Of a stretch of DNA of 64,000 nt, positions 1 to 56,331 are shown piece after piece. The DNA lies in assembly GCA_045578385.1 (NCBI GenBank), contig JAZNKD010000024.1:44774-108773 (forward strand). The letters run 5' to 3'. This DNA is from Eubacteriales bacterium (GTDB taxonomy: Bacteria; Bacillota; Clostridia; Oscillospirales; CAG-272). How positions within the stretch are numbered: the first letter of the stretch is position 1; every line of letters begins with the position of its first letter. Made by a program: the position numbers and the translations under genes. The notes under the pieces were generated by a model. That model worked only from the letters and a program-made list of their open reading frames with translations. It had not been told where the DNA came from and searched no databases.

Positions 1-198
1 ACTGCCCGTATAAATATGACCTATGTAATAAAGCGGTATCGCGATGACGAATATCAACGCGTACATACCTCGCTTAAAGCCTCGGAAAAACTCAATTCGC
101 TCTGCTCTTGAGCGAAATACTATATTCATAACGATTGCAATCGCTTCTACAAGCAAAAGTCCCAGACAAATCAATGATACAAGATTATAATATATCAC
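1..198 (-). CDS. Partial membrane protein of unknown function. Only the N-terminal 66 codons are present; the gene runs off the window start.
   Basis: The reverse frame is open for all 66 codons from GTG at 196-198. It is preceded by GGGAG 7 nt upstream. The translation VIYYNLVSLICLGLLLVEAIAIV... is hydrophobic. The supplied ORF track does not list it. Confidence 0.35.
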   Translation of the reverse strand, partial: MIYYNLVSLICLGLLLVEAIAIVMNIVFRSRAERIEFFRGFKRGMYALIFVIAIPLYYIGHIYTGS

Positions 199-437
199 CG
201 TACAGCTCCCATAAATTTATTTTAAATCAGTTATCTAAATTGTACTACTTTTCGCTTTGTTTGTCAAGAAATCTGAAATTTTCGCTGTTTCAGGCGTTAA
301 AAATATAAAATAAGTATTTTAATGCGTTGATTTTAGCGTTTCTTTGTGATAAAATATATCCGTTGAAAACAAAGCTTGAAAGAAACTTCGAAAGCCTGCA
401 ATAAAATTAGACTTAGACGCTCTAAAGGAACAGTACT

Positions 438-1180
438 ATGAAAAACAAAACGGGTATAGTTTCGATATCCTTCAGAAAGCATACTCCGCGTCAAATTCTT
501 GAAGCCGCAAGGGCTGCAAAACTTGACTCAGATGAGTGGGCGCGAATATTCACGCTTCTCACGTCGATATAAAAGCGGCAAACGAAGTAAAGGTATTATC
601 CGCCTTATACGAAATAAAAATTGCTGAATACGGCTCTTATTACGTAATAGGAAAAAGCAATCCGGAGCTTTTTTGTAAGGTGCTTTCATCTGCGCGAGAA
701 CTTGGCACCGATATCGTAATAGTCTGACCCGGACAGAATAAGCCAAGCGGCACGTATACAGCCGAGGAATACGACTTAGCCGCAGCCGACACAAAAAGGA
801 TATGCCGAGAAGCAAAAAGCGTCACGGTTGCCCTTGAATGCCGCCAGAACTCTCTTACCGACGAATACCATACAGCATTGAAATTCTTAAAGCGCGCAAA
901 CGAACCTAACCTAAAAACATTTTGGCAACCGAATCAGCATAGACCTCTCGAACATAATCTAGATGCAATAAAATCACTTCTCCCCTACATAGTCAGCGTT
1001 CACGCGTTCTCGTAAATAAGAGGTCAAAGGCTGCCGTTTTCGGCACTTGAGGACTATTGGCGTAAATGCATAAATATCCTCTCTCAAAAAGAGTTAAGCT
1101 ATATGCTTGAATTTATTTACAACGATAATATTGATACGCTTAAAGAAACCGTAGAAACGCTCAAAAAACGGCTAAACTAA
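438..1180 (+). pseudogene. Disrupted sugar-phosphate isomerase/epimerase (xylose isomerase-like TIM barrel family)
   Basis: The reading frame MKNKTGIVSISFRKHTPRQILEAARAAKLDSDEW shifts by one nucleotide in a G-run near 533-537. It continues as GANIHASHVDIKAANEV..., then meets an in-frame TGA at 725-727 and an in-frame TAA at 1014-1016. The family-like sequence continues to LEFIYNDNIDTLKETVETLKKRLN. Confidence 0.65.
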
Positions 1181-47103: not shown

Positions 47104-48624
47104 ATGTTAAATCTCGCCGTAAGAAATACGGGAAAGCTTATAAGAGAAAAATCAAAAAGCGAAAACGTACGTCTCGGAAGGCTTTTTACTAAGAAAAATT
47201 CAGCTCGCCTTATGGCTGATATGATAGAGCTTGATTTGGAGAAAACAGCCTATACCGTTCTCGATCCCGGAGCGGGAACAGGCATACTCAGCGCGGCCGT
47301 CGTCGAACATATTTGCAAAAACGCGCCTTCTTGCCGTCAGATATTCCTTACCTGCTACGAGGATGACGTCGATTTTATTCCTATGCTCGAGGATAATCTC
47401 GAGAGAATAAGAAAAAAGTGCCGTCACGATTATAACGTCAGACTTTTTGTTACGGTGTATCATGAGAATTATCTAATTGACGTAAAAAATCATTACACCG
47501 TTACGTTCTTCGATACGGTTGAGGATAAATTTGATATCATCATCTGCAATCCGCCGACAGACCTTATAGCAAAAGGCTCCGAAGAGGCGCTCGCCGTAGG
47601 CGGAGTAACGATGCTTAAGGTATCTGCTGCATTTCTTTTTCTTAAGGTTGCCGCAGAACATCTTGAAAAGGGCGGAAGGCTCGTTATAATGCTTCCCACC
47701 ACTGTTGCCACCGCCGCTTCACTTTCCGAAATAAGAAAGAGGATTTCAGAAACGCTTTCAATAAGAAATATACATCTTTTCGTAGGCAAGCAGAAAAACT
47801 CGAAACGCGCTATACCTCTTAAAAAGTCTTTGATTATATCCTACGAAAACTCCGATAATCATTCGAACATAGAAATTACGACGTCTGCTGACGACGGCTC
47901 GAAAGAAAAGCTCGTTAAGCTTCCCGCGCTTTCGTATGATTTCGTTGTGGACAAAAACGACGGCAGCTTAACTCTGCCGAAAACTCTTGAAGAAACCCGT
48001 ATAGTTAAATACATCGAAAACTTCCCCGAAACGCTCTCCTCCCTCGGACTTAAAATGAGCACGGGTCTTGTAATTGACTCGAAATGCAAGGATATTCTTT
48101 ACGACAAGGAAATACCGGGTACGATACCCGTGATACGTCCGTCAGCTATGATAGCGGGAGGTATTAAAATACCTATGCCGGGCGCAAAAAAGCAATATCT
48201 TATGCCAACCAAGACCTCTCTTTTCCAGAGAAATAAAAACCTCATTATAATCAAACGCGTTCCCGCAAAGAGCGACGAAAGATTTATCAATTCTTCGGTA
48301 TACTTTGCAGGCCAGCGTCCTGCAAATCAGTACATATCAACTCACAATAAGATAAACTTCATAGACACTAAGGATACGAAAGAAGAAATGTGCGCGAGGC
48401 TTGTTTTCGGTCTTTTCGCTATCCTTAACTCGACGATTTACGACAGATACATTTCCATCGTATCCAAATCGAAGCAGATAAATTCTAAAGAAATGAAGCA
48501 GCTTCGTCTACCCCCGAGAAACCTCATTGAAAATATGGGTATGAGACTTATGGCAGGGCGCGACAATTCAGTTGCGGCGTGCGATGCGATAGTCAACCCG
48601 ACCTTGCACATAAAAATCAAATAA
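47104..48624 (+). CDS. Gamma-class N6-adenine DNA methyltransferase-like protein (Eco57I/TaqI-type fold) with an atypical NPPT motif IV
   Basis: The SAM motif I is VLDPGAGTGILS. Motif IV is DIIICNPPTDL, where the canonical sequence would be NPPY/F/W. The C-terminal ~250 aa resembles a TaqI-type target recognition domain. AGGAG lies 7 nt upstream of the ATG. Confidence 0.65.
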   Translation: MLNLAVRNTGKLIREKSKSENVRLGRLFTKKNSARLMADMIELDLEKTAYTVLDPGAGTGILSAAVVEHICKNAPSCRQIFLTCYEDDVDFIPMLEDNLERIRKKCRHDYNVRLFVTVYHENYLIDVKNHYTVTFFDTVEDKFDIIICNPPTDLIAKGSEEALAVGGVTMLKVSAAFLFLKVAAEHLEKGGRLVIMLPTTVATAASLSEIRKRISETLSIRNIHLFVGKQKNSKRAIPLKKSLIISYENSDNHSNIEITTSADDGSKEKLVKLPALSYDFVVDKNDGSLTLPKTLEETRIVKYIENFPETLSSLGLKMSTGLVIDSKCKDILYDKEIPGTIPVIRPSAMIAGGIKIPMPGAKKQYLMPTKTSLFQRNKNLIIIKRVPAKSDERFINSSVYFAGQRPANQYISTHNKINFIDTKDTKEEMCARLVFGLFAILNSTIYDRYISIVSKSKQINSKEMKQLRLPPRNLIENMGMRLMAGRDNSVAACDAIVNPTLHIKIK

Positions 48625-48628
48625 AGAA

Positions 48629-48671
48629 AACGGACTGTTTCAGAAATTATCTTCGAAACAGCCCGTTTTAA
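48629..48671 (+). terminator. Possible weak terminator or attenuator hairpin between the methyltransferase-like gene and the GTPase-NYN gene
   Basis: AACGGACTGTTTC pairs with GAAACAGCCCGTT with one mismatch, followed by TTTA. Confidence 0.4.
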
Positions 48672-48710
48672 ATAATGAACGCCCACAAAGAATTAAGGAA
48701 GGAGTCTGCG

Positions 48711-51302
48711 ATGAAAAGAACGGTAATGGGCATTCTGGCTCACGTTGACGCCGGTAAAACCACGCTTTCTGAGGCGATGCTCTATACCTCGGGTATGAAG
48801 CAAACGCTCGGCAGAGTCGATAAGCGCAACGTCGCGCTTGACACTCACACCATCGAAAAGGAACGCGGAATCACGATTTTCTCAAAGCAGGTAGAAATAG
48901 AATTACCCGACACGGCGCTGACTTTAATTGACACGCCCGGTCACATTGACTTTTCTTGCGAGACCGAGCGTTCGTTATCGGTACAGGATTACGCTATACT
49001 CGTCGTCAGCGCGCCGGAAGGCCCGACGGCGCATACTATGACGCTTTGGAATCTTCTTTCAAGCAAAAAAATTCCCACCTTTATCTTTGTAAACAAAATC
49101 GATATAGCCGAAAGACGACGCGTTGACCTTCTCGGCGAGCTGAGGCGCGCTTTCGGCAACGAAGTTATCGATTTCAACCTTGAAACCGAAAATTACGATA
49201 GATTTTCGGAGGAATGTGCTGCAACAGACGAAGCTCTTATGTCTGAGTACTTTGAACTTGGAAAAATATCCGAAGATAAAATTAAAAAAGCTGTTTATGC
49301 AAGGCGCGTAATTCCTTGCTTTTTTGGCTCGGCTTTAAAGTGCGAGGGTATAAAGCAATTCCTCGCAGCAATAGATAAATACACTATTAAAAAACCCTAT
49401 TCGGACACAATTTTGGGAGCAAAGGTTTACAAAATAAGCACCGACCCCTCGGGAGCGCGCTTAACTTACCTTAAAGTTACAGGCGGTAAGCTTATGCCCA
49501 AAGATACGGTTCACTACATTGGTGACGGCGGAAAGCTATATTCCGAAAAGATAGAAGGTCTCCGTCTTTACTCTGCAGATAAATACAAATCTCTTAAGGT
49601 TGCCGAGGCGGGTACGGTTTGCGCCGTTGTCGGTCTTAGTCACACGAGAGCCGGCGGAGGAATCGGCGTGGAATTCGACTCGGATACGGTTCTTGAACCC
49701 GTGCTAGACTACAAAATGATATTTGAGGATAAAGGCACCGACACTCATCTTGCCTTTATGACACTTCTTCCTCTCGGAGAGGAGGAGCCGGCGCTAAGCC
49801 TTCGTTACGATGCGACAAGCGGCGAAATAAGAGTTAAGCTTATGGGTGATATACAGACCGAAGTCCTTACCCGTGTTATTTACGACAGATTCGGGCTTCG
49901 CGTTTCGTTCGGTGAAGGAAGCATTCTATACAAGGAAACGATAAGAGAAAAGGTATTCGGCGCAGGACATTTCGAGCCTCTGATGCATTACGCTGAGGTC
50001 AGGCTTAGACTGGAGCCTCTGCCGCGCGGCTCGGGGCTTGTTTTCGCCACCAACTGCCCAACAGACAGACTGCGTGCGAATTGGCAGAGACTGATTCTTT
50101 CCCACCTCGAAGAAAAAGCGCACAAAGGAATACTTACAGGCTCTCCGATAACGGATATGAAAATAACCCTTATAGCAGGAAGGGCGCATCCAAAGCATAC
50201 CGAGGGCGGAGATTTCAGAGAAGCGACGTTCAGGGCTTTAAGGCAAGGACTTATGAAATCCGAGCCTGTTTTGCTTGAGCCGGTATTCGATTTTACCATA
50301 AAATTACCCGAAGATATGCTCGGCAGGGCTATGACCGATATATCAAATATGCACGGAGAATGCGAGCCTCCCGAATTTCACTCGGGGGTGGCAAAGCTCG
50401 TCGGCACCTGCCCCGTTTTTACTATGCGAAGCTACGCGAAAGAGCTTCGTGCATACACCCGCGGAAACGGCAGTATAACACTCAACCTTGGCGGTTACCG
50501 CGAATGCCACAACACAGACGAAATTATAGCCGATCGAGCTTACAATCCGGAGCTTGATCCATCGGTGACCGCAGATTCGGTATTCTGCAAGAAAGGCTCG
50601 GGCTACGCTGTTCCCTGGTACGAAGCCGATGATAAGATGCACACCGACAATCCCGAAGAAGTGACCGAATACACCACAAGCGACAGCACCGTCACCTCAG
50701 CTTCCGACAAAAAGAAAAAACAGAGCTACAGCGGTACTATCGAAGAAGATAAGGAGCTTATGCGAATCTTCGAAAGCACCTACGGCAAAATACGTCAAAG
50801 AACAGTTCCTGACAAAATCGAAAATGCGGCAAAGGAAGAAAAACAAAAGCGCAAAAAGCCGCAGGAAAAGGGCGAAGAATATCTTATCATTGACGGATAC
50901 AATCTTATTTTCGCTTGGGATAAGCTAAAAAGACTTGCCGATGCGGAGCTCGCGCACGCAAGAGATACTCTCATCCATATTATGTGCAACTATCGCGGAT
51001 TTAAAAAATGCAATCTGATACTGGTCTTTGATGCCTATAAAAGACGCGATAACGAAGGCTCGGAAGAAATTATCGGCGGTATCACGGTAGTTTATACCAA
51101 AGAAAGACAGACCGCCGATGCGTACATTGAGCGTAGCACCTACACTCTTTCGAATAAAAACATTGTTAGAGTCGTAACTAGCGACTACGAGGAGCAGCTT
51201 ATAGTTCTTGGAAACGGTGCTGCCAGAGTTCCAGCAAAGGAATTTATAAAAGAAGTAGAAACAACTACGGACCTTGAACAATTTGGAATTGCAAATTCTT
51301 AG
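48711..51302 (+). CDS. Fusion protein: TetM/EF-G-like translational GTPase (N-terminal ~640 aa) plus a YacP/Rae1-type NYN ribonuclease domain (C-terminal ~140 aa)
   Basis: The GTPase motifs are G1 AHVDAGKT, G2 ERGITI, G3 DTPGH and G4 NKID. The sequence is collinear with TetM through domains II-V. The C-terminus LIIDGYNLIFAW / LVFDAY / TKERQTADAYIE / VVTSDYEEQLIVLGNGAARVPAKEF matches B. subtilis YacP. The start is ATG 48711, with AAGGAAGGAG upstream. Confidence 0.85.
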   Translation: MKRTVMGILAHVDAGKTTLSEAMLYTSGMKQTLGRVDKRNVALDTHTIEKERGITIFSKQVEIELPDTALTLIDTPGHIDFSCETERSLSVQDYAILVVSAPEGPTAHTMTLWNLLSSKKIPTFIFVNKIDIAERRRVDLLGELRRAFGNEVIDFNLETENYDRFSEECAATDEALMSEYFELGKISEDKIKKAVYARRVIPCFFGSALKCEGIKQFLAAIDKYTIKKPYSDTILGAKVYKISTDPSGARLTYLKVTGGKLMPKDTVHYIGDGGKLYSEKIEGLRLYSADKYKSLKVAEAGTVCAVVGLSHTRAGGGIGVEFDSDTVLEPVLDYKMIFEDKGTDTHLAFMTLLPLGEEEPALSLRYDATSGEIRVKLMGDIQTEVLTRVIYDRFGLRVSFGEGSILYKETIREKVFGAGHFEPLMHYAEVRLRLEPLPRGSGLVFATNCPTDRLRANWQRLILSHLEEKAHKGILTGSPITDMKITLIAGRAHPKHTEGGDFREATFRALRQGLMKSEPVLLEPVFDFTIKLPEDMLGRAMTDISNMHGECEPPEFHSGVAKLVGTCPVFTMRSYAKELRAYTRGNGSITLNLGGYRECHNTDEIIADRAYNPELDPSVTADSVFCKKGSGYAVPWYEADDKMHTDNPEEVTEYTTSDSTVTSASDKKKKQSYSGTIEEDKELMRIFESTYGKIRQRTVPDKIENAAKEEKQKRKKPQEKGEEYLIIDGYNLIFAWDKLKRLADAELAHARDTLIHIMCNYRGFKKCNLILVFDAYKRRDNEGSEEIIGGITVVYTKERQTADAYIERSTYTLSNKNIVRVVTSDYEEQLIVLGNGAARVPAKEFIKEVETTTDLEQFGIANS

Positions 51303-53218: not shown

Positions 53219-54619
53219 CTATGCACCCGGAGTTACCTGATTATAATAGTCAAGCGCTTCCTGTATGGCGAGAATATACGGTATAATTTCAGATCTGGTG
53301 CAGTTACGCACAACCTTGAACTCCTGACCGTTATTCATGTTGGTATAGTAAGGTGCCGCTTTCAAGAATGCATCGCGCAAATTATGAACAGCAGGATTAT
53401 CGGAATTCTGATTTTTAACCAATATATCATAAACGTTTTTGAATATTTTTGAGTTATCTATATCGTTGAAGATATCGCTGTCGTTCGTGGACATAATTTC
53501 CTCAATAGTCTTAAGCTTATCGTACTGGTCGCCCTGCTCCTGACCAACCTTATAGGTTATACCGTTCGCAACTTCATACGTACTCGGAGATGCCGTCCAG
53601 CTATTGACGTTAAACGAGCCCTGGTGACCTGACATAGAGCTGTCATAGTCCTGAATATTTGCCGTCCCCTCGTAAAGCTGAGCAAGCTGATACCAATTTC
53701 CGTTTGGATCGCACGTATAGGTTATTGCATAAACCTTAGCCGTTCCGCCCGAGTTGCTGAGATCATCAGTCGTTATGTATACCGTGTACTCACATCCAGT
53801 GGGTGCGTTTGCAGTACCGCTGTAGCTATCACCGGTTAATCTGTCATCAACGTTTTCACGCCTTATCATAATAGTAACCGGTTTTTCGGTACCGTCGATA
53901 TTTACCGTAGGATTGCTTCCGAACAGCTTATCAAATATTTCTTTATCCTCACCTACGTTACCTATAACCGTAGTCCTGTCCTCAGCATACTTATCGTCAA
54001 ACACCTCAGTTATGTAATTATATCCTAAGGTTGATATTTTATCGTTAAGTACAGCTAAGAACTCGTCATGAACGGCGTCCATTTTTATGCCGAATTTGAA
54101 GTTTACAAGCGTAGTAACGTATCCCACCGATTGCGCTCTTGATCCAAACGTATAGGTTACGTAAAAATCACGGCTAGTCATAGGAGGTATCCAGTCGTCT
54201 GTATTAAAGGTTGCTCCGGAATCCGACGCCTTGTCCTTAGTTGTGACGGAAACACCGCCCGAATCTCCAATAAGAGAATTTGACTCATAGCCGTTATCCC
54301 AATCCGGATTTATATACCAATAATGAAGCTCGGTATTGTTATACACGGTAATTTTATACGTTATGCTTGAGCTTGAGGAGGATACTCTTACTACTGAGTT
54401 AAAGTTAGTTGGCTTCAAATAAGAAGCGCTGACGTTTGTCGCCCCTGATGACGAAACGAAGGAAACCTCGGTTATATATACGCCTTCAAAAGGCTTCTCT
54501 TTATACGCAGCACTTCCGGAAATGCTCAGCCTTTCTACAACAGAAGCATAACCTATCAAAAGAGAAATCGACATGAAGGAGAGTCCGAGCCAAGTAAGAA
54601 TTTTCGTTATTCTCGTCAT
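53219..54619 (-). CDS. Secreted or anchored protein of unknown function (466 aa) carrying the shared N-terminal IGYASVVERLSISGSAAY motif
   Basis: The start is ATG at 54619, with AAAGGAGGGTG 6 nt upstream. It has an N-terminal hydrophobic segment and then a Ser/Thr/Asn-rich, beta-rich sequence. It is the last gene of the sipW-like operon. The track ORF starts at 54673. Confidence 0.7.
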   Translation of the reverse strand: MTRITKILTWLGLSFMSISLLIGYASVVERLSISGSAAYKEKPFEGVYITEVSFVSSSGATNVSASYLKPTNFNSVVRVSSSSSSITYKITVYNNTELHYWYINPDWDNGYESNSLIGDSGGVSVTTKDKASDSGATFNTDDWIPPMTSRDFYVTYTFGSRAQSVGYVTTLVNFKFGIKMDAVHDEFLAVLNDKISTLGYNYITEVFDDKYAEDRTTVIGNVGEDKEIFDKLFGSNPTVNIDGTEKPVTIMIRRENVDDRLTGDSYSGTANAPTGCEYTVYITTDDLSNSGGTAKVYAITYTCDPNGNWYQLAQLYEGTANIQDYDSSMSGHQGSFNVNSWTASPSTYEVANGITYKVGQEQGDQYDKLKTIEEIMSTNDSDIFNDIDNSKIFKNVYDILVKNQNSDNPAVHNLRDAFLKAAPYYTNMNNGQEFKVVRNCTRSEIIPYILAIQEALDYYNQVTPGA

Positions 54620-54669
54620 GGTTTGCACCCTCCTTTTTTGCATATTTGTTGACTTATATTTACATTTTA

Positions 54670-56331
54670 TCAATAAAGCAGAAACGTGATTATGGACGAT
54701 CCGTCGTCAGAGTCCTCGTACTTATTTTTATTTACCGCCGTGTTCGAGTCGGAGCTTACGACTATCGATTCAGGTGGCAAAATTACCGGAACAATGGGTA
54801 CAGCATGAATGTGAGGCATAACAACCGGTATTGCCGGCTGCACCGGTGGCTCTGGTTTTACAACTCGTTTTTTCTGTGTTTTTTTCTCTTTTTTGGGAGC
54901 TGCGCTATCCGACTTTTTAACCGTAGTAACATCCGACGCAGCATTTTCCACTTTTGAGCTTTTCACCTCCACAGCTTCCATTTCAAACTTTGGCGCGGAC
55001 TCCTCTGTGATTTTTTTCAGTTCCTCTTTTATGACGACGGTCTCCGGTTCTTTTATCTCCGGTTTGGAAGCGAAGGAGGCATCGAATGATGCGGTTGCCG
55101 TATCGTTTTCATCCAAAAAAGGCTTATCATCAGGTTTCGCGATAAACACTACATCGCCCGCCTTTTCGGACTTTACCTCGATTACAGGCTCTTTTTTATC
55201 TTCCTCAAAAGACTCCGATAAACACTCGTTTTCATTACCCGTACCATATATCTCATCATAATCGTCTACTTTTATCTCATAGAGATAAAGAAGCTGTGTA
55301 TTGGTAGGTATAAAGAACTTAGTACACGTTTTGTCCCTGTTTTCCTCCATAAGTATCGGGGATTCTATAGTATCTCGGATTTCAAGCATCTCCTCAAACG
55401 TATCTATAAGAAGCACCTGATATCCCGAAATGTTAAAATGATTCCTTATTTTCTGAATAAATGATTTGTAGTTTCTTACGAGCCTTGCAACTTTAATATC
55501 ATAAGTGATATCAACGTTTCTCGAAAAATATGCGTACAACATAATAATGAGCGCAAGAATTGCGCCTATCGCCGCAAGCATAAAGGCTCCTATACGAAAA
55601 GCTTCTGCCACGTTCTCCGTTGTGAACGAAAGAATTTTCTGCTCCTCCGGGGGTATTGCAGAGGTAATCTTTACTTCGACCGTGCGAGCGGTCAACGGTA
55701 TGCTGACGGAAGAAACGTAGGAATTCTTATTTTTGTCATTATGGAACTCATCACTCGTTTCCACAATATCTACGTGCATCTGCAAAAGCAAATTAGCGTC
55801 AACGCCCTCAAGGTCGTACGTATCTATGAACTTGCTTGCTATATCGTTATATTTAGCGTAATCAACCAAGGCGGTCTGATTTACGCTAACACCGACTGCA
55901 CTGACCGATTCACGCTTCGGTGCTATCTCCGAATATATGGGGGCGAACAAGGTTTTTCCGCTTGCGATGTCTCTTATCTGCACTACCGCATCAACACGGT
56001 AGGTATAGTCAAATTTGATAGGATTCTTCGATTCCATCGCTATTTCATATTTGAACTTCGCCTGAATCTTATCAATAAGCGATGCTATGTATGCGTAGTC
56101 TTTGCCGAGATATGAATCCTCGTAAAAATCGTTTTCCTTAAGATGAACTCCGTAATCTATCGAGCTTTTTTCTGTGTAATTAACGTAATACGTCTTATTG
56201 AGCGCTACCGCGAACACCGCCGCAATCAGCATTGCAACAACGACAGCCGCTAAAATTACTGCCTGCAGGGTTATCAGGCGCTTACGCTTTATTCTGTAGC
56301 CAAGCCGTTGTTTCTTCTCGTCCTCTGACAT
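54670..56331 (-). CDS. Bitopic membrane protein, DUF5305-like architecture, with a long acidic/Lys/Pro-rich C-terminal tail
   Basis: 553 aa. TM1 is at ~25-45, followed by a ~200-aa extracytoplasmic region, TM2 (FRIGAFMLAAIGAILALIIMLYAYF), a cytoplasmic globular region and a low-complexity tail. The DUF5305 assignment is from memory of the architecture and of its neighbourhood with sipW. Confidence 0.6.
   Translation of the reverse strand: MSEDEKKQRLGYRIKRKRLITLQAVILAAVVVAMLIAAVFAVALNKTYYVNYTEKSSIDYGVHLKENDFYEDSYLGKDYAYIASLIDKIQAKFKYEIAMESKNPIKFDYTYRVDAVVQIRDIASGKTLFAPIYSEIAPKRESVSAVGVSVNQTALVDYAKYNDIASKFIDTYDLEGVDANLLLQMHVDIVETSDEFHNDKNKNSYVSSVSIPLTARTVEVKITSAIPPEEQKILSFTTENVAEAFRIGAFMLAAIGAILALIIMLYAYFSRNVDITYDIKVARLVRNYKSFIQKIRNHFNISGYQVLLIDTFEEMLEIRDTIESPILMEENRDKTCTKFFIPTNTQLLYLYEIKVDDYDEIYGTGNENECLSESFEEDKKEPVIEVKSEKAGDVVFIAKPDDKPFLDENDTATASFDASFASKPEIKEPETVVIKEELKKITEESAPKFEMEAVEVKSSKVENAASDVTTVKKSDSAAPKKEKKTQKKRVVKPEPPVQPAIPVVMPHIHAVPIVPVILPPESIVVSSDSNTAVNKNKYEDSDDGSSIITFLLY

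Follow-up and report, generated by a model that had tools for sequence, protein, structure and literature searches.

The gene at positions 48711-51302 on the forward strand of a 64,000-nucleotide stretch of DNA (contig JAZNKD010000024.1 of assembly GCA_045578385.1; hereafter, the window) encodes a single polypeptide in which a guanosine triphosphatase (GTPase) of the translation-factor type is joined, through a tether, to an endoribonuclease domain like that of B. subtilis Rae1 (YacP). As judged by comparison with its relatives, this fusion is genuine, conserved, old, and common in gut Clostridia. By the same comparisons, its GTPase module is a distinct subfamily that is neither a tetracycline ribosomal protection protein nor EF-G, and its nuclease module retains an intact acidic active site. 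We propose, with moderate confidence, that the protein would act as a ribosome-docked, translation-coupled factor that cleaves messenger RNA (mRNA) for surveillance or rescue.

The architecture itself is already known, and the window protein is a further member of a catalogued clostridial family. Fusions of a Tet-like GTPase to NYN_YacP in Clostridia were recorded by Atkinson in 2015 (BMC Genomics; PMC4342817), who placed them in the Tet subfamily and whose Additional file 8 contains examples from R. albus 7, E. eligens, E. rectale, B. proteoclasticus, C. cellulolyticum H10, C. lentocellum, L. phytofermentans, C. thermocellum ATCC 27405, and two D. hafniense strains (PMC4342817), and the same architecture was described by Matelska et al. 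in 2017 (Nucleic Acids Research; PMC5499597). The initial annotation of this stretch, made by a model from the letters and an open reading frame (ORF) list, knew of no experimental description of the architecture; the architecture itself is reported in these two papers. Each of them gives the fusions one or two sentences, proposing a role as a ribosomal RNA (rRNA) ribonuclease or in resistance (PMC4342817, PMC5499597), with no analysis of loops, tether, or unfused orthologues. The catalogued clostridial fusions share with the window protein its architecture, its C-terminal extension of the GTPase, and the domain IV signatures GHFEPLRHYAEV and GRAHxKHTEGGDFR, and in the R. albus 7 fusion the tether motif reads DEELMAIFERTYGSI. 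The source of the window protein is an uncultured gut bacterium of the Eubacteriales/Oscillospirales type; the protein is ~70% identical to its nearest species-level relative and falls in a clade in which the NYN domain has lost the YacP tail. New here are the separation of the GTPase subfamily from Tet, the helix motif in the tether, the unfused orthologues, and the lack of a conserved neighbour, of a defence-system match, and of a real phage link.

Translation of 48711-51302 gives one ORF of 863 amino acids without internal stops, and an NCBI protein entry is 100% identical to it. In the ORF list the gene extends 5' to an ATG at 48675 (875 amino acids). Because homologues begin with MK(R/K) at the position equivalent to the ATG at 48711, and because a strong Shine-Dalgarno sequence, AAGGAAGGAG, lies 6 nucleotides 5' of this ATG (48695-48704), we place the start at 48711 and not at 48675, as the initial annotation had done. 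The gene and its parts are as follows:

48711-51302, forward strand: whole gene of the GTPase-NYN fusion, stop codon included (translation; Pfam)
48695-48704, forward strand: Shine-Dalgarno sequence AAGGAAGGAG (sequence; homologues start at the equivalent MKR)
48711-49400, forward strand: G domain, residues 1-230 (Pfam GTP_EFTU, 2.4e-48, residues 5-225)
49422-49916, forward strand: domains II and III, residues 238-402 (weak Pfam EF-G_D2/EFG_III matches; confident AlphaFold2 (AF2) model; Foldseek matches to EF-G)
49920-50261, forward strand: domain IV, residues 404-517 (Pfam EFG_IV, 1.1e-18)
49959-50000, forward strand: domain IV loop 1, GxGHFEPL(R/M)HYAEV, residues 417-430, a family signature (36-sequence comparison)
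50178-50225, forward strand: domain IV tip, G(R/K)AHxKHTEGGDFR(E/Q)A, residues 490-505, a family signature (36-sequence comparison)
50268-50513, forward strand: domain V, residues 520-601 (Pfam EFG_C, 5.5e-18)
50514-50642, forward strand: family-specific C-terminal extension of the GTPase, residues 602-644 (conservation; AF2)
50643-50726, forward strand: sub-linker 1, variable, acidic, and Ser/Thr-rich, residues 645-672 (predicted local distance difference test score (pLDDT) < 50 at 653-670)
50727-50801, forward strand: conserved tether motif Y-x-G-T-x-EEDKELMRIFESTYGKI-x-x-R, residues 673-697 (conservation; AF2 helix at 677-691)
50802-50870, forward strand: sub-linker 2, basic and Lys/Arg/Pro-rich, residues 698-720 (pLDDT < 50 at 697-718)
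50871-51269, forward strand: NYN_YacP (Rae1-type) endoribonuclease domain, residues 721-853 (Pfam; PDB alignment)
51270-51302, forward strand: C-terminal tail, short and variable, with the stop codon (in this clade the YacP model is unmatched over its last ~35 positions)

To place the protein in its family, three collections were searched: proteins clustered at 90% identity, representatives at 50% identity, and one genome per GTDB species. The 120 best matches among the 90%-clustered proteins are all 840-881 amino acids long and carry the same Pfam set, with identities down to 57%; likewise, nearly all of the best 150 of the 50%-identity representatives are full-length fusions of 830-1000 amino acids that align end to end down to 39% identity. 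When a profile made from the C-terminal 279 residues was run over the GTDB species, it gave at least 600 pattern matches, at least 587 of which were confirmed by tblastn, a number that may include stand-alone YacP genes. The best 80 of these confirmed loci all cover the extension, the tether, and the NYN domain, and a whole-protein tblastn found the GTPase and the nuclease in one frame across the junction in every one of them (80/80, five being cut by contig ends). The initial annotation's claim of a single polypeptide is thus borne out, and the stop or frameshift between two genes that it had named as refuting is absent from the junction in all 80. Taxa named for the loci are Oscillospiraceae, Ruminococcus, Faecalibacterium, Oscillibacter, Dysosmobacter, Lawsonibacter, Monoglobus, Acutalibacteraceae, Lachnospiraceae, and a Peptostreptococcaceae metagenome-assembled genome (MAG). 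One locus (L021, 8242-10804, from a Ruminococcus MAG) is frameshifted within the G domain, near residue 184, through either an assembly error or decay to a pseudogene.

By profile and structural matches, residues 1-644 are a complete five-domain EF-G/Tet-type translational GTPase that is predicted to be catalytically competent. The boxes AHVDAGKT, RGITI, DTPGH, and NKID named in the initial annotation are all in place: G1 AHVDAGKT lies at residues 10-17, RGITI at 52-56 with the G2 residue T55, G3 DTPGH at 74-78, and G4 NKID at 128-131, followed by G5 GSA. G1-G5, with the catalytic H78 among them, either do not vary or are conserved at 90% or more in homologues down to 37% identity, so that GTP hydrolysis is under selection. 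The profiles that the initial annotation had proposed as a check were matched, namely GTP_EFTU, EFG_IV, EFG_C, and NYN_YacP, domains II and III being matched weakly. An AF2 model of the fusion, built from 93 homologues, has a mean pLDDT of 82.5, with low-confidence stretches at 653-670 and 697-718, and its best Foldseek matches are EF-G structures (~690 columns, E = 1e-52). Outside the G domain, the best-conserved segments are the two domain IV loops GHFEPLRHYAEV and AHxKHTEGGDFR, and both signatures hardly vary across 36 sequences whose identities go down to 37%.

The GTPase resembles Tet(M)/Tet(O) in being a five-domain EF-G-like protein of ~640 residues with a short G' insert, and the collinearity with TetO through the domain IV/V equivalents that the initial annotation had noticed was recovered over the full length (TetO 2-598 versus window 2-612). 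The label of ribosomal protection protein that it had drawn from TetM did not hold. The best NCBIfam model for the window protein is indeed tet_protect, but at 374.5 bits versus a cut-off of 775; the TetM/W/O/S model gives 235.8 versus 1100, Tet(Q) 236 versus 1425, and Otr(A) 275 versus 900. EF-G models fall below their cut-offs as well (TIGR00484, 274.7 versus 659.4; NF009381, 316.7 versus 583), and in a comparison with solved structures the scores for T. thermophilus EF-G (231 bits) and Tet(O) (217 bits) are about equal. For a closer comparison, the sequence of TetM 430-639 was validated against PDB 3j9y before it was aligned to the window protein. In domains IV-V, Tet(M) is only 27% identical to the window protein, and the tetracycline-displacing loop III of TetM, Y506-Y507-S508-P509-V510-S511, corresponds to A492-H493-P494-K495-H496-T497, so that Y506, Y507, and P509 are all absent. 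Domain IV loop 1 reads PPNPFWASIGL in TetM and GGRGQYGHV in EF-G, and neither is like that of the fusion family. The C-terminal extension is longer than, and different from, the one of Tet(M)/Tet(O), and unlike those proteins the window fusion is chromosomal and non-mobile and scores under half of the NCBIfam cut-offs. As for EF-G, H493 of the window protein aligns with H573 at the domain IV tip of T. thermophilus EF-G; on the other hand, the window protein is without ~50 G' residues that EF-G has between query positions 133 and 159, its domain IV loop 1 has four residues fewer and a sequence unrelated to that of EF-G, and it additionally carries the C-terminal extension, the tether, and the nuclease. 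On these comparisons, we conclude that the GTPase module is a subfamily of its own.

The ~45-residue extension consists, in order, of a helix, a beta-hairpin SVFCxxGxGYxVPW, a helix, and a terminal MH, and AF2 places helices at 602-609 and 636-642 and strands at 623-627 and 630-634. A profile of residues 594-646 found no relatives in the PDB, returning chance matches only (E > 0.4). C599, H600, C626, and H644 are invariant among close relatives; a Cys/His zinc site formed by these four residues was considered as a defining feature and rejected because C599, H600, and C626 vary in the deep family. The initial annotation had begun the linker at about nucleotide 50640, after residue ~640 of the GTPase; residues 602-644 belong to this conserved extension and not to a linker.

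The linker, for which ~78 residues had been given, has a variable acidic stretch and a basic one, and between them lies a conserved helix motif that had gone unnoticed. Sub-linker 1 is 20-41 residues long across the family, and sub-linker 2 is 20-34 residues long with a median net charge of +3. The residues of the tether motif are invariant among close relatives, and its core, D-x-E-L-x-x-I-F-E-x-T-Y-G-x-I-K at 679-694, is recognisable in most of the deep family; AF2 models residues 677-691 as a helix (pLDDT 66-76). The distance from H644 to D728 is 80-87 residues in close relatives and 66-96 residues in the deep family, and by this spread the length of the tether is constrained. The motif is not in the stand-alone C. 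difficile YacP, which starts 7 residues before the NYN core, and searches of the PDB (including 5mq8/5mq9) with the single sequence and with a profile gave no match at E <= 10. We also considered that the tether helix might be a relocated or circularly permuted C-terminal tail of Rae1, and this was not supported.

The final ~142 residues are YacP-like, as the initial annotation had stated, and all of the blocks that it quoted are present. Pfam NYN_YacP (PF05991) matches residues 725-853 (1.9e-45; 155.3 bits versus a cut-off of 24.6), and the NYN part aligns with residues 3-131 of B. subtilis YacP/Rae1 (PDB 5mq8/5mq9) at E = 8e-23 and ~40% identity, for example LIIDGYNLIFAW in the window versus LLVDGYNMIGAW in B. 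subtilis. D728, N731, D774, D803, and D825 align with B. subtilis D7, N10, D53, D81, and D104; these five active-site residues are invariant in sets of 19 and of 93 close relatives, and their conservation in the deep set is 90% or more, so that the four catalytic Asp residues singled out for checking are all conserved, together with an Asn. By its active-site alignment, the domain is therefore a Rae1/YacP-type endoribonuclease with an intact acidic active site. The likeness to YacP holds for the core and the active site but not for the C-terminal tail: the window NYN covers positions 1-131 of the 166-position Pfam model, compared with 1-144 in R. albus and 1-164 in C. thermocellum. Fusions of the C. 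thermocellum/C. cellulolyticum type keep the full YacP module, ending RNYL.DAL..., with R. albus intermediate. From this coverage, the YacP tail is lost in the window's Oscillospirales-type clade and kept in the C. thermocellum clade.

In comparison with Rae1, the window domain thus has the NYN_YacP fold and sequence and all catalytic acidic residues, and a link to the ribosome is to be expected. The differences lie in its surroundings: Rae1 is a free 170-residue protein encoded in an rlmB-yacP-sigH context, whereas the window domain is the C-terminal module of an 863-residue GTPase; it is without the C-terminal ~35 residues of Rae1, and on its N-terminal side are a conserved helix and a basic stretch, both absent from Rae1. 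Rae1 also reaches the ribosome unaided and only transiently (PMC13622287).

The GTPase also exists without the nuclease. Plasmid records were searched by tblastn with residues 1-650; plasmid-labelled fusions were those of Monoglobus and Agathobacter, on non-mobilizable records of 250-520 kb, and megaplasmids of Ligilactobacillus salivarius carry GTPase proteins that are ~44% identical to the window protein. One of these, LSL_RS10690 of L. salivarius UCC118 pMP118 (locus L081, 3986-5920), has 644 amino acids and matches residues 1-646 at 44% identity; GVGHFEPLRHYSEV, the GGDFRQA tip, and the C-terminal extension are all retained and the protein ends a few residues past MH, while the tether and the NYN domain are absent and the tip loop is partly changed (GKASNVHTVGGDFR). 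This unfused form (640-665 amino acids) is widespread on Lactobacillaceae chromosomes, where it goes by the database names elongation factor G, TetM/TetW/TetO/TetS family, and translation factor GTPase family protein. By these shared features, the unfused Lactobacillaceae proteins are an orthologous GTPase subfamily. Stand-alone YacP-type NYN genes were in turn seen in Bacilli, including one member of the Lactobacillaceae, and in C. difficile. Because GTPase and nuclease are separate in some Firmicutes and fused in many Clostridia, their functions may be coupled. In C. difficile, yacP lies in the order cysS-mrnC-thyX-rlmB-NYN-sigH (record NZ_CP149721.1).

Several side observations were made in the course of these searches. 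On pMP118, the unfused GTPase gene is divergent from a paralogue of rpsN (S14) and a 'putative metal homeostasis protein', neighbours that might point to a connection with the remodelling of ribosomes under zinc limitation. Twelve C. difficile 'plasmid' records in PLSDB, 97-150 kb in size, carry a stand-alone NYN gene; because one of them, NZ_CP149721.1 (L083), holds the core chromosomal region cysS-mrnC-thyX-rlmB-yacP-sigH-tuf-rpmG, these twelve records are probably mislabelled chromosome fragments. Database labels on the fusions and their unfused orthologues include TetM/TetW/TetO/TetS family, TetM from transposon Tn916, TetO, and elongation factor G. To judge from the comparison with Tet proteins and EF-G above, these labels are likely annotation errors, and the Tet labels could inflate tet-gene counts if resistome surveys use them.

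We clustered the four genes on each side of the fusion gene in 78 related loci. No neighbour family recurs in more than 8 of the 78, and their positions vary, so that no conserved operon partner was found; the genes beside it in the window are shared with the closest relative (L001) alone. The genes that canonically adjoin yacP (cysS, mrnC, rlmB, and sigH types) are absent from all 78 loci. The fusion protein matches none of the PADLOC families, and only 2 matches were found among 2.9 million viral contigs, both at contig edges. Overall, the gene behaves as a self-sufficient chromosomal housekeeping gene and not as a mobile resistance or defence gene.

EF-G-family factors bind the GTPase centre of the ribosome, and their domain IV enters the 30S A site. 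B. subtilis Rae1 cuts mRNA only during translation, and the cut is now placed at the stalled ribosome's tail, 12 nucleotides upstream of the codon in the A site (PMC12407103). Of note, the initial annotation had relied on A-site cleavage by Rae1, which is outdated and has been withdrawn by the laboratory that had proposed it (PMC12407103). Because the cut is made at the tail of the stalled ribosome, a picture in which the GTPase simply places the nuclease in the A site does not follow. A 2026 preprint reports that Rae1 makes substrates for transfer-messenger RNA (tmRNA) upon ribosome collisions, and there is no structure of ribosome-bound Rae1 because its binding is transient (PMC13622287). 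Of the functions suggested in the initial annotation, mRNA surveillance or ribosome rescue survives as the best reading, while a defence function lacks both a PADLOC match and a conserved neighbour.

In our working model, the GTP-bound GTPase module would dock at the factor-binding site of a ribosome that is unable to proceed, and the conserved tip of domain IV would probe the 30S A site and read its state, making stable docking nucleotide-gated. The tether of ~80 residues could reach ~60-100 Å, enough to lead from the exit of the intersubunit space to the point where mRNA enters the same ribosome, though scarcely to where it leaves. Docking might occur on the trailing ribosome of a collided pair, which would be rotated and blocked in translocation and would resemble the natural substrate of EF-G. 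The mRNA entry of the trailing ribosome would coincide with the tail of the leading one, which is the reported Rae1 cut site, and the NYN domain would be placed there. The cut would give a non-stop mRNA to be rescued by tmRNA, and GTP hydrolysis would free the factor. The GTPase would thereby take over the ribosome targeting that stand-alone Rae1 must manage alone, a role that would fit the loss of the YacP C-terminal tail in the window clade. We are considerably less confident of this specific disome geometry than of translation-coupled mRNA cleavage as such. SmrB of E. coli and Cue2 of yeast offer a functional analogy to this proposed role, being collision-linked nucleases that cut mRNA and feed rescue (PMC13622287, PMC12407103); they have an SMR fold and are recruited via the disome interface or ubiquitin, whereas the window fusion has an NYN domain and a GTPase module.

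Several points weigh against this reading. The geometry on collided ribosomes was deduced from what is generally known of the size of ribosomes and the structure of disomes. No experimental study of the fusion was found in the full-text literature searched, in line with what the initial annotation had stated. The original context-based predictions for YacP were in rRNA or transfer RNA (tRNA) processing. Moreover, if the fusion replaces Rae1, the genomes that carry it should be without a stand-alone yacP; coverage here was the 64-kb window and the 80 related loci, in which no second, stand-alone NYN gene was found.

Four explanations compete with mRNA surveillance or rescue. Nucleases of the PIN/NYN fold that cut rRNA or tRNA, such as VapC toxins, are well known, and the fusion could be directed at these RNAs, with the GTPase on 70S ribosomes or late assembly intermediates and the NYN domain acting to mature ribosomes, to control their quality, or to inactivate and turn them over under stress or in sporulation. 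Earlier predictions for YacP from gene context point this way, as do the cysS-mrnC-rlmB-yacP-sigH context of stand-alone yacP beside rRNA processing and modification genes (PMC5499597) and the suggestion by Atkinson (PMC4342817). However, the fusion gene never adjoins rRNA processing genes in the 78 loci, and the nearest rRNA elements, the sarcin-ricin loop and the decoding centre, would presumably be covered by the GTPase itself; we regard this explanation as unlikely. A far smaller chance goes to a tetracycline ribosomal protection protein with an accessory RNase domain, that is, a new resistance mechanism. The Tet subfamily placement and the resistance idea of 2015 (PMC4342817), the rank of tet_protect as top NCBIfam model, the TetM/TetW/TetO/TetS family labels that NCBI gives several members, and the short Tet-like G' region speak for it. 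They are outweighed by the scores themselves (374.5 versus 775 for tet_protect; 235.8 versus 1100 for TetM/W/O/S), by the change of loop III from YYSPVS to AHPKHT in a family that conserves another signature, by the mere 27% identity to TetM in domains IV-V, and by a chromosomal location without mobile-element context, in which the flanks vary by species and plasmid-labelled copies are confined to the non-mobilizable 250-520 kb records.

Nuclease fusions aimed at the translation apparatus are common in defence systems, and the gene upstream in the window is a type II DNA methyltransferase (PADLOC MTase_II, 1e-59), which together raise the idea of an anti-phage or abortive-infection effector, or a toxin, that cuts RNA on ribosomes when triggered. 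We consider this very improbable: the protein has no PADLOC match, the methyltransferase is common only to L001 with no neighbour conserved, an antitoxin-like or immunity partner is not present, the family extends over many species in housekeeping surroundings (pheST in the window), and viral contigs yielded only the two contig-edge matches in 2.9 million. That the fusion is an artefact of assembly or annotation, joining adjacent GTPase and yacP genes, has next to no likelihood left. MAGs carry this risk in general, and locus L021 does have a frameshift, though inside the G domain; yet the junction is in one frame in all 80 best species-level loci and in nearly all of the best 150 50%-identity clusters, cultured strains whose genomes are finished (among them R. 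albus 7, C. thermocellum ATCC 27405, and E. rectale) have the fusion as well, and the tether has its own conserved motif. An assembly artefact is thus refuted by the comparative data.

The fusion might further be read as a 'Rosetta stone': with its family-specific domain IV tip, an EF-G-like sensor would detect a ribosome that has a vacant A site or that is rotated and blocked in translocation (collided), and in a GTP-gated step it would license a Rae1-type cut at the ribosome's edge. By extension, the free Rae1 of Bacilli, cyanobacteria, and chloroplasts would partner EF-G or the unfused paralogue known from Lactobacillaceae. We offer this extension tentatively and think it rather doubtful; if true, it would amount to a GTPase-coupled branch of bacterial ribosome quality control. 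The fusion also offers an experimental handle on ribosome recognition by Rae1, as it may be trappable with GTP analogues or a catalytic-His mutant. Rae1 itself has newly become central to a collision-rescue pathway of Gram-positive bacteria (PMC13622287). Members of the family are found in Clostridia that dominate human and animal guts (among them Faecalibacterium, Ruminococcus, Agathobacter/Eubacterium rectale, Oscillibacter, and Monoglobus) and also in tractable cellulolytic species (C. thermocellum and C. cellulolyticum).

In the window, the fusion gene lies between the type II DNA methyltransferase gene upstream and a family-2 glycosyltransferase gene on the other side, with a phosphoesterase gene and pheST nearby. 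It is separated from the methyltransferase gene by the following element:

48630-48669, forward strand: terminator-like hairpin and T-run (TTTT), 3' of the methyltransferase gene and 41 nucleotides 5' of the start codon (RNAfold, -13.3 kcal/mol)

No promoter-like site was found between this hairpin and the start codon of the fusion gene. Because the nearest such site (48222-48251) is within the methyltransferase gene, transcription of the fusion gene may depend on read-through of the terminator. Relatives do not conserve the hairpin, and the idea of a shared leader or attenuator of the tet(M) kind was rejected, as terminator-like hairpins are found upstream in only 20 of 68 loci and look like terminators of unrelated genes.

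The methyltransferase gene (47104-48624, forward strand) encodes 506 amino acids of a type II N6-adenine enzyme, with Pfam matches to Eco57I/N6_Mtase in addition to the PADLOC match, and no restriction endonuclease is evident beside it. Two further ORFs lie on the reverse strand and overlap by 4 nucleotides. The one at 53219-54673 (484 amino acids) has no Pfam match, and the one at 54670-56331 (553 amino acids) matches DUF5305 (4e-09) and has a long low-complexity, Lys/Glu/Pro-rich C-terminal region.

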